From: Deltaproteobacteria bacterium
GTDB taxonomy: Bacteria > Myxococcota_A > UBA9160 > SZUA-336
Length of the DNA: 64,000 nt
NCBI GenBank assembly: GCA_031396695.1
Contig: JANNLG010000171.1
Span: forward strand, 6,053 to 70,052
Reading direction: 5' to 3'
Shown: positions 3,475 to 45,636 of the stretch, one piece after another
How positions within the stretch are numbered: position 1 is the stretch's first letter
How the letters are laid out: each line of letters starts with the position of its first letter
Position numbers and translations under genes: made by a program
Notes under the pieces: generated by a model
Seen by the model: the letters and a program-made list of their open reading frames with translations, nothing else
Told to the model about the DNA's origin: nothing
Database searches by the model: none

Positions 3475-4425
3475 ATGGCCAAACCCTTCCGCTTCGCGGT
3501 GCAGGTCTCGACGCTCCCCGCCGACGGCTGGATCGAGCGCGTGCGCTCGTACGAGCGACTCGGCTTCTCCACGGTCTTCTGCCCCGATCACTTCGGGCCG
3601 CAGTGGGATCCGACTGCGCTGCTCGCGGCGGCCGCCGCGGTCACGACACGACTCAATGTCGGGTCGCTGGTGTACGACGTCGACTACCGCCACCCCGTGA
3701 TCCACGCCAAGGGCGCCGCGACGATCCAGCTGCTCTCCGGCGGGCGGCACGAGTTCGGCATCGGCGCGGGTTGGATGCAGACCGACTACGACGAGGCGGG
3801 CATGCCTTACGACCGCCCAGGCCTGCGCATCGAGCGGCTCGACGAGGCGCTGCAGATCATCAAGAGCATGTGGGAGAACGAACGCACCACGTTCTCGGGC
3901 AAGCACTACAAGATCACCAACATCGCGAAGGCCGCCGAGCTGCCGGCCGGCGCGCGGCCCAAGATCCTGATCGGCGGTGGAGGACCGCGCGTGTTGCGGC
4001 TCGCGGGCCGGCACGCCGACATCGTCGGCATCAATCCGAGCCTGCCCGAGGGCAAGATCACGCGAGACAGTGCCGCCGATCTCGCGCCCGAGCGGCTCGA
4101 CGAGAAGCTGCGCCACGTGCGCGCGGGCGCGGAGGCCGCGGGCCGACGTTTCGACGAGATCGAGCTGAACTCGCTGACCTTCGTGGTGGCGATCACGGAT
4201 GATGCCTCGGGCCTGCGCGCGGGCCTGGCCGCGAACAGCGGAATGTCGGTCGAGCAGGTCGCGAACTGCCCGATCTTCCTGACCGGCTCCGCGGCGGAGA
4301 TCCGCGACGGGCTCGAGAAGCGGCGCGAGCGCTACGGGCTCTCGTACATCGTGATCCAGGGCCGCGATCCGGCCATGGTCGAGAAGTTCGCCGAGCTGAT
4401 CGTGGCGCCGCTGTCCGGCAAGTGA
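3475..4425 (+). CDS. LLM-class (luciferase-like) F420-dependent oxidoreductase
   Basis: ATG at 3475 (MAKPFRFAVQV). Conserved luciferase-like monooxygenase (LLM) TIM-barrel signature (GFSTVFCPDHF, EFGIGAGW). The ORF track's N-terminal extension is R-rich junk. Confidence 0.75.
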   Translation: MAKPFRFAVQVSTLPADGWIERVRSYERLGFSTVFCPDHFGPQWDPTALLAAAAAVTTRLNVGSLVYDVDYRHPVIHAKGAATIQLLSGGRHEFGIGAGWMQTDYDEAGMPYDRPGLRIERLDEALQIIKSMWENERTTFSGKHYKITNIAKAAELPAGARPKILIGGGGPRVLRLAGRHADIVGINPSLPEGKITRDSAADLAPERLDEKLRHVRAGAEAAGRRFDEIELNSLTFVVAITDDASGLRAGLAANSGMSVEQVANCPIFLTGSAAEIRDGLEKRRERYGLSYIVIQGRDPAMVEKFAELIVAPLSGK

Positions 4426-4473
4426 CGCGCGCGAACGAGCGAGCGCATGCGCTAGCAACTTTGCCTCAAGCGG

Positions 4474-7400
4474 GTGCGCGACACCTCCGATAACTTCGTG
4501 GACATGAGCGCCACGCTGGGGACGGACCCGCCGCTCTGGGAGCGCTACACCCGAACGCACGGCCGCGTGCACCTGACGGGTCTGCAAGCGCTGCTGCGCA
4601 TGACGCTCGACCAGCTGCGCAGCGACGCGCGCGCAGGGCTGCGCACCGGCGCGTTCTTCTCCGGCTATCCGGGTTCTCCGCTCGCGGGGCTGGACGGAAT
4701 GCTGCGCAGCCTGGCGCCGCTGCTCGCGCGCTCGGACGTGCGGCTCGCGCCGGGTCTGAACGAAGAGCTCGCGGCCAGCGCGGTGGCGGGCACGCAGCTC
4801 GTCGAGACCTTCCCGCACGCCCGCTACAACGGCGTGCTCGGGGTCTGGTTCGGCAAGGCGCCCGGTCTCGATCGCGCGATCGACGCGCTGCGCCACGCCA
4901 ATTTCGTGGGCACCGGACGGCAGGGCGGTGCGCTGGCGGTCGTGGGCGACGATCCGTTCTGCAAGAGCTCGTCGCTGCCGAGCCACAGCGAGCACGCCTT
5001 CGCGCACGCCTACATTCCGTTGTTCGCGCCGGCCGACCCGGGCGACGTGCTGCGCCTCGGACGGCTGGCGTTCGCGCTCTCGCGCTACACCGGATTGTGG
5101 AGCGGACTGCGCATGGTGGCCGACGTGGCCGACTCGGGCCGGATCGTCACGCTCGCCGACGCTGAGCCCGCGCTCGTGCTGCCGGAGTTCGTGAATCCGG
5201 CCGGCCGGCCGGCTCGGCGCATCGACACGAATCTGCTGCCGCCGAACGTGCTGCGCATCGAGCAGGATCTGGTCTTCGGCAGACTCGAAGCCGTGCACCG
5301 CTTCGCGCGCGCGAACGGCTTGAATCCGATCACGTCGAAGCACGCGCGCGATCGCGTGGGCCTCGTCGCTTCGGGCTCGCTCTACCGCGAGCTCGAGAGC
5401 GCGCTCGCGCTGCTCGGCCTCGACGAGCCCGAGCGCGAGCGACTCGGCGTGCGGCTGCTCAAGCTCGACCTGGTCTGGCCGCTCGAGACCGAGCGCATGC
5501 GCGAGTTCGCATCCGGACTCGAGGCGATCGTGGTGGTGGACTCGCGCCGTGCCTGGCTCGAGGAGCAGGTGCGCGCGGCGTTGTACGAGGGCGGGTCGCG
5601 CGCGCGCGTGCTCGGCCAGCACGACGAGCGCGGCGCGGCCTGGCTCGCGCGCCGCCACGAGCTCACCGGCGGTACGCTCGCGCAGGATCTCGCGCCCTGG
5701 CTGGGCGAGAAGCTCGGCGAGCCGAAGCTGGTTTCTCGCCTCGCGCCGCTCGAAGCCGCGCTCGCGCGCGCGTCCCACGCGGCCGAACCGTCGCGCGCGC
5801 CGCACTTCTGCAGCGGCTGTCCGCACTCGTCGTCGACCAAGCTGCCCGAGGGCTCGCTCGCCGGCGGCGGCATCGGCTGTCACACCATGGCGCTGCTCAT
5901 GCCCGAGCGCGCAGTGCGGCTGCTCGGCGCGATGGGTTCGGAGGGTGCGCACTGGATCGGTCTCGCGCCCTACACCGAGACGCGACACCTGTTCCAGAAC
6001 CTGGGCGACGGCACCTACTTCCACTCCGGCCGGCTGGCGGTTCGCGCCTGCGTCGAGGCCGGTGCGACGATCACCTTCAAGCTGCTCTGGAACGGAGTCG
6101 TCGCGATGACCGGCGGCCAGCACGCCGTGGGCGCCAAGCCGCTCGCGGCGCTGGTGCGGGATCTGCTGGCCGACGGGGTGCTCTGCGTGGTGGCGATGAG
6201 CGACGACCGCGAGGTCGCCGCGCTCGAAACCTACGAGCCGCGTCTTCGGGTGGTGGACCGGAACGGCTGGGACGGCGCCATGCGCGAGCTGCGCGAGCAG
6301 AGTGGCGTCAGCGTCATGATCTGGGACGAGCTGTGCGCGAACGAGAAGCAGCGGCTCGAACGCCGCGGCGTGCTCGCTCGGCCGAGCGCGCGCGTGGTGA
6401 TCAACGAAGACGTGTGCGAGGGCTGCGGCGACTGCGGCGTCAAGTCTTCGTGCGTGTCGCTGCGGCCGGTCGAGACCGCGCTCGGCCGCAAGACGCGCGT
6501 GCACGCGGGCTCGTGCAGCGACGATCGCGCCTGCCTCGACGGGGACTGCCCGGCGTTCCTCTCGGTCGAGGGTGCGACGGCCGCAGCGCTGCCCTTCGAG
6601 TCCCTGCTGACGGGGCCGCTGCCCGAGCCGCCCGCGCCGATCTGGGACGGCGATCGCTACGAGCTGCAGCTGGTCGGCATCGGCAGCACGGGCGTGGTCA
6701 CGATCGACGCGCTGCTGGTGCGCGCCGCCGAGCACGACGGCTTGTACGCGATGCACCTCGACCAGACCGGCCTCGCGCAGCGCGGCGGCAAGGTCGTGTC
6801 GCACTGCGTGCTCGCGCGCACCGAACTGACGGGCAGCCCGCGCATCGAGCCGGGCCGCGCGGACGTGCTGCTCGCCTTCGATCCGCTCGGCTCCTCGGAT
6901 CGCGACGCACTGCGCGCGCTCGACCCGGGCCGCACGCGCGCGGTGGTGCACGAGCTGTACGTGCCGACCGGCGCCGACGTGGGCGCGCCCGGCTTCCAGC
7001 CGCCCGACCTCTCCTTGCTGATCGAGCCGCTGCGCGAAGCCACGCGCTCGCTCGAGCGCGTTCCCGCGGAGCTGCTCGCGGAAGTCGCGCTCGGCCAGTC
7101 GCTGTCGGCGAATCTGGTGCTGCTCGGCTTCGCCTGGCAGCGCGGACTCGTGCCGGTCTCGCGACTCGCGCTCGAACGCGCGGTGCGAGAGAACGGTGTC
7201 GCGGTCGAGGCCAACCTGCGCGCGATCGCGCTCGGCCGCGCGGCCGCGGTCGACGCGGAGCTGGTCGCGAAGCTCTTGCACGACGCGACTCCGCCGGCGA
7301 TCGGCGACGAGCCGGCGCTCGATCGCGCCGCGCGCGCGCTCGGTCCGGCCTGGAGCGCGGTGCACGAAGCGCTCGGCCGCTTCCAGCACGCGAAGGACTC

Positions 7401-13943: not shown

Positions 13944-15086
13944 CTACAGAGCCTTCGCCGCCTCTTCGAGCGCGACCACCACGTGATAGACGCTGGTCGC
14001 GTTCTGCGCGTCCGAGATCACGCGCCCGTCGCGCGCGAGCTGCTCGAACCAGCCGTGCGTCTTGGGATCGACGTGACGAGCGAAGCAGTAGCGCAAGCCG
14101 GCTTCCAGCTCGCGCCGCGCGATCGCGTCGCCCGTCGCCCGCGCGCGCGCGGCCAGCGCCTTGACGCGCTCGGTCTGCGGCCACAGTCGCTTGGTCACGG
14201 CGAGCGTCCGGCCCTCGGCGTCGATCTGGTCGAAGACTCCGCCGTCGGTGTCGACGCCCAAGCGGCGGCCGAACTCGAAGAGCCGATCGGACAGCGCGCG
14301 CGCCGCGTCGCTCGGCGCGAGCGACTGCAACCGATCGAGCAGCCAGACCCACTCGAAGTGATGCCCGGGCTCGACGATGCGCCCGGCATCGCCCGCGAGC
14401 GGCCGCCAGTGGGAGTCGAAGTGTTCGCCGAGCGCGCCCGTGCGCGCGTCGAGCCAGCGCGCGCCGAGCAGCTCCACGAGCGAGCGCGCGTCGCGCAGCG
14501 CGCCGCTGTCGGGCGCGACCTCGGCCAGCACCAGTAGCGCCTCGACCAAGTGCATGTGCGGGTTCTGTCGCCGCGGCCCCGCGAGCGGCTGCCAGTCCTC
14601 GCTCGCGGTCTCGAAGAAGCCACCCGAAACGGGATCGCGCAGCCGTTCGCGCAGGAGCTCGAGCGTCGCGCTCGCCAGCCGCAGGGACTCCGGCTCGCCG
14701 CTTGCCCGGTGGTGCTCGGCGAGCGCGAAGATCGCGAACGCATGCCCGTACAGATCCTTGCGTCGGTCGAGCGGCGCGCCCGCCTCGTCGGTGGTGGTGA
14801 ACCAACCGCCGAAGCGCGGGTCCCAGAAACGCGCGTGCAGGAACTCGAGTCCGTGCGCCACCGCGTTTCGCGCCCACGCGCCGGCGCCAAGTTCCGACGC
14901 GCGCGTGAACGCGAAGATCTGGCGCGCGTGGACCAGGAGTCGCTTGTGACCGTCGGGCAGCGGCGCCAGATCGGGTCCGAGCCGGTTCCAGTAGCCGCCG
15001 CGGTTGCGATCGAGACCGTGCCGTTCCCAGAGCGGCAGCAGCTCGTCGACCAGATGCGCGCGCAGCGTCAGGCGCGAGTGCTGCAT
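13944..15086 (-). CDS. N-acylglucosamine 2-epimerase (AGE) superfamily protein
   Basis: ATG at 15086 (MQHSRLTLRAHLVDELLPLWERHG). (alpha/alpha)6-barrel AGE-family conserved motifs. 381 aa. Confidence 0.75.
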   Translation of the reverse strand: MQHSRLTLRAHLVDELLPLWERHGLDRNRGGYWNRLGPDLAPLPDGHKRLLVHARQIFAFTRASELGAGAWARNAVAHGLEFLHARFWDPRFGGWFTTTDEAGAPLDRRKDLYGHAFAIFALAEHHRASGEPESLRLASATLELLRERLRDPVSGGFFETASEDWQPLAGPRRQNPHMHLVEALLVLAEVAPDSGALRDARSLVELLGARWLDARTGALGEHFDSHWRPLAGDAGRIVEPGHHFEWVWLLDRLQSLAPSDAARALSDRLFEFGRRLGVDTDGGVFDQIDAEGRTLAVTKRLWPQTERVKALAARARATGDAIARRELEAGLRYCFARHVDPKTHGWFEQLARDGRVISDAQNATSVYHVVVALEEAAKAL

Positions 15087-15093
15087 CGCTCGC

Positions 15094-15435
15094 TCACGAC
15101 AGCGCGTCGGTGTAGGCCTCCGCGTTCCAACCGACCAGCAGCGTGTCGCCGACCACCAGCGCCGGCGCGCGCAGATTTCCGGTCGGCCCGAGGACGGCCT
15201 CGACGATCTCGTCGGGCGCTTTTCCGCCGGGCGTGAAGCTGCGCAGCGCTTTGCCTTTCGCCACGACAACGCGCCTCGCGGCCTTCACCAGCTTCGCGGC
15301 GTCGGCCTTGCCGAGCTTCTTGCTCGCAGAAACCGTCGCGACCGGCTCGATCTTCCTGGCGTCCAGAAACTTGGACGCTCGTTCGCAACTGGTTCAACCG
15401 TTGCGGTGGTAGTACCAGTCGATGCGCTTGGCCAT
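15094..15435 (-). CDS. Spx/ArsC-family thioredoxin-fold protein with in-frame TGA at codon 14. Candidate selenoprotein with a U-T-S-C redox motif.
   Basis: ATG at 15435 with SD GGAGG 9 nt upstream. In-frame TGA at 15394..15396. Readthrough gives MAKRIDWYYHRNG-U-TSCERASKFLDARKIEP..., which aligns with the Spx N-terminus ...SCTSCRKARAWLEEHDI. The C-terminus (LRAPALVVGDTLLVGWNAEAY) is typical of the ArsC/Spx family. Total length 113 aa. Confidence 0.55.
15359..15378 (-). other. Putative bacterial SECIS hairpin (7-bp stem, 6-nt loop AGUUUC)
   Basis: The mRNA sequence GCGUCCA-AGUUUC-UGGACGC begins 16 nt after the UGA. The loop G is about +24 nt from the UGA. Confidence 0.35.
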
Positions 15436-15475
15436 GCGATCCACCCTCCGATTCGGAGATCGAGCTTAGCAAGCG

Positions 15476-15697
15476 TCAGGCGGGGACGGACTCCCCGCCC
15501 GCGAGACAGACGCTCGGGGCGCGCTGGCGGCGCTCGCCGTGGGTCTCGGCGAGCAGATCGTGCACCGTCTCGCGGCAGCCGCCGCAGCTCGAGCCCGCGC
15601 CGCACATCTCGGCGACCTGACAGGGCGTGCGAGCGCCCGCACGCGCGGCGTGCTGGATTTCGCGGTCGGTCACGGCGTGGCAGCTGCACACGATCAT
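15476..15697 (-). CDS. bfd: Bacterioferritin-associated ferredoxin
   Basis: MIVCSCHAVTDREIQ...CGAGSSCGGC 2Fe-2S motif. 73 aa. ATG at 15697. Confidence 0.8.
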   Translation of the reverse strand: MIVCSCHAVTDREIQHAARAGARTPCQVAEMCGAGSSCGGCRETVHDLLAETHGERRQRAPSVCLAGGESVPA

Positions 15698-15718
15698 GAC
15701 CGACAGCCTACCTCGGAT

Positions 15719-15737
15719 GATAATGACAATCAATTAC
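15719..15737. promoter_or_regulatory. Fur box
   Basis: GATAATGACAATCAATTAC matches the consensus GATAATGATAATCATTATC at 15 of 19 positions. It lies in an AT-rich gap between the divergent bfd and lemA genes. Confidence 0.55.
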
Positions 15738-15776
15738 CAAGTTGCCGGCGGCGCATCTGGCGAATACCCTGGCGGC

Positions 15777-16367
15777 ATGAAAAACCCAAATCGTTCAATG
15801 GCTTGCGTTCTCGCCCTGCTGGCGTTGGCGGTCTCGGGCTGCGGCTACAACTCGATCCAGGGAGCCGACGAGAACGTCAAGGCCGCTTGGGCCGAGGTGG
15901 AGAACCAGTATCAGCGCCGCATGGACCTGATCCCGAATCTGGTCGCCACCGTGAAGGGTGCGGCGAACTTCGAGAAGGAGACGCTCGAAGCCGTGATCCA
16001 GGCGCGCGCCAGCGCGACCCAGGTGAAGATGGACGCGAGCGTGCTCGACGACCCGGAGGCGTTCAAGAAGCTGCAGGAGGCTCAGAGTTCGTTGTCGGGC
16101 GCGCTCTCGCGACTGTTGGTGGTTTCGGAGCGCTACCCGGAGCTGAAGGCGACCGCGGCGTTCAGAGACCTGCAAGCGCAGCTCGAGGGCACGGAGAATC
16201 GCATCACCGTCGCCCGCAAGCGTTACGTCGAGACGGTGGCCGAGTACAACAAGCTGGTGCGTTTCTTCCCGACCAACCTGACCGCGCGCTTCATCCTGGG
16301 CGTGGAGCCGCGGCCGACCTTCGAGGCCACGCCCGGCTCCGAGAAGCCGCCCGAGGTGAAATTCTGA
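15777..16367 (+). CDS. lemA: LemA family lipoprotein
   Basis: Lipobox LAVSGC and a typical LemA body (NVKAAWAEVENQYQRRMDLIPNLV). ATG at 15777. Confidence 0.85.
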   Translation: MKNPNRSMACVLALLALAVSGCGYNSIQGADENVKAAWAEVENQYQRRMDLIPNLVATVKGAANFEKETLEAVIQARASATQVKMDASVLDDPEAFKKLQEAQSSLSGALSRLLVVSERYPELKATAAFRDLQAQLEGTENRITVARKRYVETVAEYNKLVRFFPTNLTARFILGVEPRPTFEATPGSEKPPEVKF

Positions 16368-17125
16368 GCGCGAGCCCCGCGCGCGCCGCGCTGATCGTTC
16401 TCGCGCTCGTCGGTGTCGCGTTCGCTCGCGATGCGCGCGCGCTCGAGATTCCCGAGCTGCGCGCGCACGTGCTCGATCGCGCGGGTCTGTTGCCGACGCA
16501 GTCGGCGCAGTCGCTCGAGCGAACACTCAGCGACTTCGAGCGCTCGACCGGTCACCAGGTGGTGGTGCACGTCACGCCATCGCTCGAGGGGCTCGAGATC
16601 GAGGACTACTCGATCCAGACCGCCGAAGCCTGGAAGGTCGGCCAGCAGAGCCTCGACAACGGCGTGATCCTCACGGTCGCGCCGAACGAGCGACGCGTGC
16701 GGATCGAGGTCGGCTACGGGCTCGAGGGCGTGCTGCCCGACGCGCTCTCCGCGCGCATCGTGCGAGACGTGATCCTGCCCGAGTTCCGCGCGGGCCGGAT
16801 GGATCAGGGCGTGCTCGCGGGCACGCGCGCGATTCTCGGCGTGATCTCCGGCGAGGTCCTGCCGGTCCCCGCGCAAGGCGGTCGACCTGCGCCATCGAAG
16901 TGGATCGTGGGGCTCTGGATCGTGTTCATCGTCGTGATGCTCCTCTCGCGCGGCCTCTTCTTCGCGCCGCCGTTCGGTGGACCCGGCATGCGGCGCGGCC
17001 GGAGCTCGAGTGGAATGCCGCCGTTCGGCGGCGGTTTCGGGCGCGGTGGCGGGGGCTTCGGTGGCGGCGGATTCTCGGGTGGCGGCGGCGGCTTCGGCGG
17101 CGGCGGCGCGTCGGGACGCTGGTGA
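16364..17125 (+). CDS. TPM-domain (TLP18.3/Psb32/MOLO-1, YgcG-like) protein with Gly-rich C-terminal tail. Probable CTG start overlapping the lemA stop.
   Basis: Signal peptide MSASPARAALIVLALVGVAFA. TPM domain (HVLDRAGLL...TGHQVVVHVTPSL). C-terminal TM segment and GGGFGGGG tail. There is no ATG, GTG or TTG in frame upstream of the signal peptide. Confidence 0.7.
   Translation: MSASPARAALIVLALVGVAFARDARALEIPELRAHVLDRAGLLPTQSAQSLERTLSDFERSTGHQVVVHVTPSLEGLEIEDYSIQTAEAWKVGQQSLDNGVILTVAPNERRVRIEVGYGLEGVLPDALSARIVRDVILPEFRAGRMDQGVLAGTRAILGVISGEVLPVPAQGGRPAPSKWIVGLWIVFIVVMLLSRGLFFAPPFGGPGMRRGRSSSGMPPFGGGFGRGGGGFGGGGFSGGGGGFGGGGASGRW
17028..17112 (+). repeat. GGC/GGT-rich low-complexity coding repeat (Gly-rich tail of the TPM protein)
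   Basis: Encodes GGGFGRGGGGFGGGGFSGGGGGFGGGG. Confidence 0.6.
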
Positions 17126-17748
17126 TGCGCGCTTCCGAGCTGCTCGACGAGCGCGGCCGCGCGGCGATCGCCGCGGCGGTGCAGGCGGCGGAACGCGCGA
17201 CCTCGGGTGAGATCGTGCCGGTGATCGTGGAACGCAGCGACGCCTACGCCGAGCCGCGCTTCGGCGCCGCAGCGCTGGTCGCCTTCGCATCGGGCGCGGT
17301 CGCGCTCGCGTTCGCACCGGGGCTCGCGCCCTGGCTCGTGCCGACACAGCTCGGTGTGTTCGCGGCCGGCGCGTGGCTGTTCGGCCGAGCCGCGCTGCTG
17401 CGCCGTCTGGTTCCCGAAGAAGTCGTGAGCCGGCGCGTCGCGCGCGCGGCCGCGCTCACTTTCCACGAAGCCGGGCTGGTCGAGACGCGCGAGCGGACCG
17501 GCATCCTGATCTACGTCTCGCTGCTCGAGCACCGCGTAGTCGTGCTCGCCGATCGCGGCATCCACGCGCGCGTCGAGCCGGGCACCTGGGACGAAGTCGT
17601 CGCGCGCATCGTCACCGGCATCCGCGAGCGCCGCGCCGAAGCCGGCCTCGCCGACGGCATCCGGCTGTGCGGAGAGATCCTGAGCGAGCGGTTCCCGATC
17701 CGCCCCGACGACCGCAACGAGCTACCCGACACACCGCGCGGCGGCTGA
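17125..17748 (+). CDS. TPM-domain protein (second gene of the LemA-TPM-TPM module)
   Basis: MRASELLDERGRAAIAAAVQAAERATSGEIVPVIV...GILIYVSLLEHRVVVLAD. The ATG overlaps the upstream stop as TGATG. Confidence 0.75.
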   Translation: MRASELLDERGRAAIAAAVQAAERATSGEIVPVIVERSDAYAEPRFGAAALVAFASGAVALAFAPGLAPWLVPTQLGVFAAGAWLFGRAALLRRLVPEEVVSRRVARAAALTFHEAGLVETRERTGILIYVSLLEHRVVVLADRGIHARVEPGTWDEVVARIVTGIRERRAEAGLADGIRLCGEILSERFPIRPDDRNELPDTPRGG

Positions 17749-17774: not shown

Positions 17775-18230
17775 TCAGACCCTTTGCTTTTTCTGGCACC
17801 TCGGGCAGATCCCGTACAGGATGTGCCGGTGCTGGGTGAGCACGTAGCCGTGCTCGGCGGCGACCTTGCGCTGCTCTTCCTCGATCGTCTCGCGCTCGAA
17901 CTCGACGATCGCGCCGCAGACCTGACAGATCAGGTGGTCGTGGTGGTGGCCCTCGCGCTCGTAGAGCGTGACGCCGTCGCGGAAGTGATGCGCGCGAGCG
18001 ACGCCCGCCTCGCAGAACAGCTTCAGCGCGCGGTAGACGGTGGCGGCGCCCACGTCCGGGCTCGAGTGCAGGACGGCCTCGTACAGCTCTTCGCTGGTCA
18101 CGTGACCCTTCGCGTGCAGGAACGCGTCGAGGATCGCGTCGCGCTGCTTCGTCTGCTTCAGACCGTGGCGCGAGAGATGCTCCGACAGCTTCTCATGGGC
18201 GCGCCGGTCGGACTCGACCCCGGATGCCAT
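17775..18230 (-). CDS. fur: Fur family transcriptional regulator
   Basis: 151 aa. HHHDH...CQVCG...CPRC metal-site motifs and a winged-helix N-terminus. Confidence 0.8.
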   Translation of the reverse strand: MASGVESDRRAHEKLSEHLSRHGLKQTKQRDAILDAFLHAKGHVTSEELYEAVLHSSPDVGAATVYRALKLFCEAGVARAHHFRDGVTLYEREGHHHDHLICQVCGAIVEFERETIEEEQRKVAAEHGYVLTQHRHILYGICPRCQKKQRV

Positions 18231-45066: not shown

Positions 45067-45636
45067 TCAGCTTCGCGGCACGAGATCGAGATCCGCCTCG
45101 ATCTCGGCGCGCTTCGCGTCGCGCCAGGCGCGGAACTCGGGCCCGTCCCAGGCGCGCTGGTCGCCGAGCAGGTAGCTGCGCGCGTTGCGCTCGTACAGCC
45201 AGGCGTTCAAGCGGTTCTCGCGCGACGAGTCGCGCTCCGCGATCACCTTGGCGGGAATGCCCACGAGCACCACCCCGGGCGGAAACTCCTTGCCCTCGGG
45301 CACCAGTGCACCGCCGCCCACGATCGAGCCCTTCCCGATCACCGCGCCGTCCATGATCGTCGCACCGATCCCGATCAAGCAGTGGTCGCCGATGGTCGCG
45401 CCGTGGATGGTCGCGCGGTGCGTGATCGAGCAGAACTCGCCGATCCGCGTCGGCGCCTCGTAGCCCACGTGGATCATCGCGAAGTCCTGCAGGTTGGTGT
45501 ACCGGCCGATGCGCACCTCCTGCGCCTCCGCGCGGATCACCGCGTGCGGCCATAGCGATGCGTGCTCGGCGATCGTCACCCGGCCGTAGATCTGCACGCC
45601 CGGGGCGCGGAAGACGCTCTCGTGGATCGACTGCAT
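45067..45636 (-). CDS. Gamma-class carbonic anhydrase family protein (hexapeptide repeat)
   Basis: ATG at 45636 (MQSIHESVF). Left-handed beta-helix repeats and conserved His ligands. Confidence 0.8.
   Translation of the reverse strand: MQSIHESVFRAPGVQIYGRVTIAEHASLWPHAVIRAEAQEVRIGRYTNLQDFAMIHVGYEAPTRIGEFCSITHRATIHGATIGDHCLIGIGATIMDGAVIGKGSIVGGGALVPEGKEFPPGVVLVGIPAKVIAERDSSRENRLNAWLYERNARSYLLGDQRAWDGPEFRAWRDAKRAEIEADLDLVPRS

Follow-up and report, generated by a model that had tools for sequence, protein, structure and literature searches.

Our analysis of a 64,000-nt stretch of bacterial DNA, hereafter the window, identified on the minus strand, at positions 15435-15094, a gene that most probably encodes a 113-residue selenoprotein of the NCBIfam family NF041106. 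The UGA at codon 14 would be read as selenocysteine (Sec), a hairpin in the downstream codons would act as the SECIS element, and the resulting UxxC motif would have a redox role; we give this reading as a whole a probability of about 0.9. The conservation of the TGA, the coding character of the DNA on both of its sides, the covariation within the hairpin and the family membership are established.

The coding sequence (15094..15435, minus strand; 113 residues including Sec14) begins with the ATG at 15435-15433, which is preceded at a spacing of 9 nt by the Shine-Dalgarno sequence GGAGG (15445..15449, minus strand, read from the sequence). From this start, the minus-strand frame runs through MAKRIDWYYHRNG to the TGA at 15396-15394 and continues with TSCERASKFLDARKIEP, so that the residues spelled by the translation are M-A-K-R-I-D-W-Y-Y-H-R-N-G-TGA-T-S-C-E-R-A-S-K-F-L-D-A, and the next stop is encountered only at the TGA at 15096-15094. 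The in-frame TGA (15394..15396, minus strand) is codon 14, read as Sec14, and opens the U-T-S-C motif, in which the TGC codon at 15385..15387 (minus strand) provides Cys17, the UxxC partner. The start at 15435 in its GGAGG context and the frame left open through the TGA into the C-terminus had both been claimed in the first-pass annotation, and our reading of the minus strand agrees with them. The same annotation had expected the gene to be called wrongly, as it indeed is: the program-made list of open reading frames shows just a 64-aa C-terminal fragment (15094-15288), and most database homologues are fragments as well.

A protein search in which Cys was substituted at the TGA returned 182 matches, most of which span 56-86% of the query and have a length of 64-99 aa, i.e., they are gene calls that restart 3′ of the TGA. 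P0011, the protein annotated by NCBI for the closest MAG, is such a post-TGA restart (79 aa, 'hypothetical protein'). In the full-length homologues, the TGA column holds Cys in the context DWYYHRNG-C-T-x-C, with the motif C-T-[AST]-C. Three database proteins (P0055, P0063 and P0076) have W at this column; the codon of the P0055 'W' is TGA in the DNA (L082:3001-3345), and the residue is a code-4-style mistranslation. Across metagenome protein sets, the family is systematically mis-annotated, with the Sec-TGA given as Trp or the gene shortened to 64-99 aa.

We also scanned genomes, one per species, and obtained at least 600 matching stretches, from which 80 loci were kept. All 80 carry TGA at the Sec column, in the context DWYYHR[NK]G-TGA-TSCxRASKFLDA. 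Their labels include Myxococcota, Acidobacteriota (Marinacidobacterales and Vicinamibacterales), several Gammaproteobacteria, Binatia and Eisenbacteria, together with Spirochaetales, Planctomycetaceae, Actinomycetota, Opitutales and Bdellovibrionales. The nearest of them, with 88% identity, lies in a Myxococcota MAG (JBBDXF010000009.1). The alignment of homologues by which the first-pass annotation had proposed to check its reading thus gives TGA at this column in 80/80 loci and Cys in the full-length Cys forms. At the column of Cys17, Cys is present in 81/81 sequences, encoded by TGC or TGT. Over the nine codons located 5′ of the TGA, the variability at codon positions 1, 2 and 3 is 0.14, 0.03 and 0.27, respectively, and an ATG or GTG is found 13 codons 5′ of the TGA in 74 of the 80 loci. 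This codon-position pattern and the conserved start codon indicate that the N-terminal peptide is translated in-frame with the downstream part.

The SECIS-like hairpin, GCGUCCA-AGUUUC-UGGACGC (15359..15378, minus strand), has a perfect 7-bp stem and a 6-nt loop and folds with -10.9 kcal/mol. Counting the nucleotides past the UGA, the stem starts with number 16 and the loop G is number 24; the gap between the UGA and the loop is 22 nt. In an alignment of 78 distinct sequences, covering the TGA to +45, 95.8% of the cells of the 7-bp helix are paired, compared with 27-37% in controls in which the 3′ arm was slid by 1-3 columns. Compensatory changes occur in four of the seven pairs, a value reached by none of 500 shuffles; among these two-sided changes are U-A for G-C at the base of the stem, and C-G, U-G or A-U for G-C in pair three. 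RNAalifold, with no structure supplied, independently returned the identical helix. Synonymous positions of the stem codons are frozen (UCC for Ser+7 in 74/81 sequences and AAG for Lys+8 in 72/81, with a third-position variability of 0.00-0.01); outside the stem, four codons (AGC, UCU, UCC and AGU) are used for Ser+2, and UUU and UUC interchange freely at Phe+9 in the loop.

The published bSECIS model describes a loop of 3-9 nt with a G in the first two loop positions, a stem of 4-16 bp, a UGA-loop spacing of 16-37 nt and an MFE of no more than -7.5 kcal/mol (PMC13188914). The window hairpin agrees with it on every point: the loop AGUUUC has 6 nt with G at position 2, the stem has 7 bp, and both the 22-nt spacing and the energy of -10.9 kcal/mol are within the limits. 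The earlier proposal of a 7-bp hairpin starting 16 nt past the UGA as the SECIS was therefore borne out as to conservation, covariation and the bSECIS features. At the gathering threshold, Rfam had no match of any kind in the whole window, and thus none to a bacterial SECIS family. The single-sequence MFE structure of the 66 nt at 15335-15400 prefers another pairing, with an unexceptional z of -1.38; we dropped this alternative, whose 3′ arm falls in non-conserved columns, and the comparative data favour the 7-bp hairpin.

As a control, the same codons were read in five Cys-form homologues. The four more distant ones form only 3-5 of the seven pairs and fold weakly. The closest Cys form (L085:154-492, from Logan ERR11443736, encoding protein P0010) has TGT at the Sec column and retains a perfect hairpin, GCGUCCAGAUUCCUGGACGC; the best reading of it is that of a fossil SECIS that outlived a recent Sec-to-Cys replacement.

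Among the other explanations of these data, the one that survives best, although improbable, is that the UGA is decoded as something other than Sec, either because TGA has been reassigned genome-wide (code 4 or 25) or because Cys or Trp is inserted in a relic gene after loss of the Sec machinery. Three observations speak for it: the closest Cys form keeps its hairpin, so Sec/Cys switches do occur in the clade; three database entries give W for the codon; and the Sec machinery was not found within 64 kb. Searches with the E. coli proteins (tblastn) detected no selA, selB or selD in the window, and in the fetched flanks (about 0.8 Mb) nothing beyond one weak SelA-like match (L048); no tRNA-Sec was reported by ARAGORN in the window or the fetched flanks. 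Since the window is 64 kb of a multi-megabase genome, the absence of these genes from it is uninformative either way. A reassigned code is contradicted by the window itself, where TGA is the stop of 21 of the 28 genes, including the selenoprotein gene, bfd and Pfam-verified full-length genes; TGA being an ordinary stop here, the recoding is specific to the site and no variant genetic code is involved. Loss of the machinery is opposed by the fact that neither the TGA nor the hairpin has decayed, and that both are constrained, in the window gene as well as in L001, its relative with 88% identity. The W entry checked at the DNA level, that of P0055, is a TGA. The reading of codon 14 as Sec is the one we retain.

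Two side results of these searches concern other parts of the window. ARAGORN reported an 85-nt 'tRNA-Ala(cgc)' at 4281-4365 (minus strand) with the anticodon at position 39. Rfam gave no tRNA there at the gathering threshold, nor any at E <= 1 over 4150-4500, and the call is probably a false positive in DNA of 71% GC. A scan of the window for further genes with an in-frame TGA yielded four candidates, none of them convincing. At one of these sites (45067-45069, minus strand), a single TGA separates two long in-frame ORFs of about 328 and about 308 codons; since VARIAVIGV..., which follows the stop, resembles the N-terminus of a Rossmann-type protein, the site most likely marks the boundary of two ordinary genes rather than another recoding event.

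It is highly improbable that the TGA at codon 14 is a true stop that closes a 13-aa leader peptide, with the functional protein made from an internal start such as the GTG at 15288. Database calls of this kind, with 64-99 aa, are numerous, and their very spread in length reflects internal starts that are not conserved. No part of the family is more conserved than the stretch between the TGA and these starts, TSCxRASKFLDA..., in which the invariant Cys17 lies, and the Cys forms are full length. In the structure predicted for P0010, moreover, residues 4-26, the counterpart of the window stretch across the TGA, make up strand beta-1 and helix alpha-1 of the thioredoxin-like core. The first-pass annotation had named a sequencing error, together with a frameshift or stop in close relatives, as grounds for refutation. 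Such an error, or a pseudogene inactivated by mutation, for which one could cite that the window is known from one sequence and that gene callers take the TGA as a stop, is effectively excluded by the identical TGA in 80/80 independent genomes and MAGs, the purifying selection on both of its sides and the conserved SECIS-like hairpin.

With Cys in place of Sec, the window protein matches NF041106, 'ArsC family (seleno)protein', with 112.4 bits (cutoff 85; E = 1.5e-32), and the match extends over residues 5-108 against positions 1-107 of the 107-position profile. By this score, the window gene is a regular member of a described and curated selenoprotein family, and the suggestion of a new selenoprotein made in the first-pass annotation does not hold. 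A UxxC family, 'Arsenate reductase 2' (cd03032), was recorded in 2008 in the GOS selenoproteome of Zhang and Gladyshev with 42 sequences and 238 Cys homologs (PMC2398784), and a 2026 review by Zhang et al. lists NF041106 as a UxxC selenoprotein, 'Arsenate reductase-like protein', crediting it to the 2008 GOS study (PMC13188914). ArsC-like selenoproteins had been listed earlier in Desulfotalea and Desulfuromonas (PMC1794560), and a distinct UxxS 'arsenate reductase' selenoprotein was described in the Sargasso Sea survey (PMC1088965). In the selenoprotein literature consulted, we found no report of experimental Se incorporation for any member of the family.

The selenoprotein gene lies between two genes of the same strand. 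Upstream, bfd (15476..15697, minus strand; PF04324, E = 1.8e-14) encodes a BFD-like [2Fe-2S] ferredoxin, with 40 nt between its stop and the ATG of the selenoprotein gene; the search for terminator-like sites on the minus strand of this interval was negative. Downstream, an AGE-family (N-acylglucosamine 2-epimerase-like) gene (13944..15086, minus strand; PF07221, E = 3.9e-71) begins 7 nt past the selenoprotein stop. Divergently from bfd, a string of lemA and two TPM-domain genes occupies 15774-17748 on the plus strand. The 80-bp divergent bfd-lemA region contains a strand-neutral Fur-box-like 7-1-7 palindrome, TGATAATGACAATCA (15718..15732), with 2 mismatches to TGATAATNATTATCA. It is the sole such site in the 64 kb, and 0/100 shuffles yield one. 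The region has a single sigma-70-like promoter match (plus strand, 15696-15724), with which the palindrome overlaps, and a Fur-family gene (17775-18230, minus strand) is found about 2 kb away. The match is to the 15-nt 7-1-7 form only; the 19-nt E. coli Fur-box consensus has no match at <=3 mismatches. Together, the palindrome, the promoter match and the Fur-family gene suggest that bfd, and perhaps the lemA-TPM genes too, are regulated in response to iron.

The order lemA, TPM, bfd, selenoprotein, AGE recurs, whole or in part, only in the four closest loci (L001, L002, L006 and L009). The bfd-selenoprotein-AGE order is repeated in L001, L002 and L009, and the lemA-TPM-TPM string is syntenic in all four. 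Three Azotimanducaceae loci (L047, L050 and L052) have a weaker LemA homologue directly 3′ of their selenoprotein gene. All-vs-all clustering of the ORFs that flank the 80 loci revealed no recurrent neighbour beyond lineage synteny. Thus, the bfd, AGE and Fur-box context pointed out in the first-pass annotation is present at the locus; as a trait of the family it does not stand, the bfd/AGE arrangement being a lineage synteny confined to the closest Myxococcota. The promoter region bearing the Fur-box-like site probably drives bfd, the selenoprotein gene and AGE as one transcript in this Myxococcota lineage. A further suggestion would make the selenoprotein a redox partner that reduces or repairs the [2Fe-2S] cluster of Bfd, or that aids iron mobilisation from bacterioferritin. 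We regard this as unlikely, the basis for such a link to Bfd and iron mobilisation under Fur control being the lineage-specific gene order. If true, it would be the first physiological role for a widespread, uncharacterised selenoprotein family.

A comparison of the family profile with the PDB gave Spx as the best match (1z3e and others, E = 2e-9), followed by the putative ArsC 2m46 (E = 1e-7) and YffB 1rw1 (E = 9e-5), with glutaredoxins weaker; 2kok and 3gkx of the ArsC superfamily were also matched, and the Spx, ArsC and YffB chains together span E = 2e-9 to 1e-4. The profile alignment places the Sec column on Cys10 of Spx and Cys17 on Spx Cys13, in line with the earlier claim that the UGA falls on a Cys of the Spx CTSC motif. 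Pfam gave no significant match for the window protein, PF03960 (ArsC) included, and TIGR01617 scored 17.5 bits against a cutoff of 75; PF03960 is recorded for the homologues P0047, P0112 and P0113. An AlphaFold model was made of P0010, the closest Cys homologue, which is 59% identical to the window protein. The model (pLDDT 90.5, pTM 0.83) has a thioredoxin-like core of the beta-alpha-beta ... beta-beta-alpha type, and a Foldseek search of the PDB with it returned Spx, ArsC-related proteins, YffB and glutaredoxins at the top, with a TM of about 0.55 and an rmsd of 6-7 Å. In its middle (residues 55-68), the model shows a beta-hairpin in place of the helical structure of Spx and ArsC. Profile and model together point to a divergent member of the ArsC/Spx/Grx-like superfamily. 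Because PF03960 is not matched and the TM is only about 0.55, the label 'ArsC/Spx' denotes a distant relationship and says little on function. Neither an arsenate reductase nor an Spx-type regulator role should be assumed from it.

From these elements we infer the following course of events. During translation, the UGA at codon 14 would be decoded as selenocysteine. The hairpin located 16-35 nt past the UGA, within the codons for R-A-S-K-F-L-D-A, would serve as the SECIS that recruits SelB with Sec-tRNA(Sec). The product would have the core of a thioredoxin/glutaredoxin-like protein, akin to those of Spx, ArsC and YffB, with Sec14 and Cys17 at the position of the Cys10-x-x-Cys13 redox switch of Spx. 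It would then most likely cycle between the selenol/thiol and selenenylsulfide forms, as a small oxidoreductase or redox sensor. Both the insertion of Sec and this chemistry are predictions from sequence, the redox cycle being deduced from the UxxC at the N-terminus of helix 1 and from general knowledge of thioredoxin-fold CxxC/UxxC proteins.

For annotation, the consequence is that a 113-residue selenoprotein, with a transl_except for Sec at 15396-15394, takes the place of a 64-99 aa 'hypothetical protein'. The gene also implies a putative Sec-decoding trait in the host organism. A comparative SECIS data set is gained, which documents covariation across 78 sequences and, in a Cys form, one fossil SECIS. 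The analysis reveals no new selenoprotein family, recoding mechanism or function.

Compared with known recoding elements, the window hairpin shares with the E. coli fdhF-type SECIS and the bSECIS consensus its nature as a stem-loop in the coding sequence just 3′ of the UGA, and its apical-loop G-U, spacing and stability are in the consensus range. Unlike the fdhF-type SECIS, it has a family-specific primary sequence (GCGUCCA AGUUyn UGGACGC) and begins 16 nt past the UGA and not immediately after it.

With the glutaredoxin-coupled ArsC of the R773 type (PF03960), the protein shares the superfamily, a nucleophile at the N-terminus of helix 1 and the existence of a Sec-containing form. It differs from ArsC in that its motif is UxxC and not the UxxS of the Sargasso Sea form (PMC1088965), in the lack of a PF03960 match and in its context, which is not an ars operon: no ars gene (such as arsR, arsB or acr3) was found among the window neighbours or across the 80 loci. 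A single Arg is invariant in the family (R89, in GNLRAP), which falls short of what arsenate binding would call for. Lacking a PF03960 match, the UxxS motif and an ars context, the gene does not imply arsenate reduction.

Spx, the Bacillus subtilis global redox-sensing regulator that binds the alpha-CTD of RNA polymerase (1z3e, 3gfk and 6gho), is the best match in both profile and fold. Its C10-T-S-C13 occupies the position of U14-T-S-C17, its LLRRP aligns with NLRAP, and its C-terminal 'VGYNEDE' aligns with 'VGWNAEA'. The two differ in the central region, where the P0010 model has the beta-hairpin (55-68) and Spx an all-helical insert, and the TM is about 0.55. To our knowledge, regulatory Spx homologues are known only from Firmicutes. 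A central region that diverges and hosts outside the Firmicutes speak against presuming an Spx-type regulator function. The closest correspondence is with NF041106/'Arsenate reductase 2' itself, with which the window gene shares the UxxC motif, the Sec/Cys alternation and the length of about 113 aa. Nothing essential differs between them, and what is particular to the window gene among NF041106 members generally is the bfd-x-AGE string, shared with close Myxococcota relatives only.
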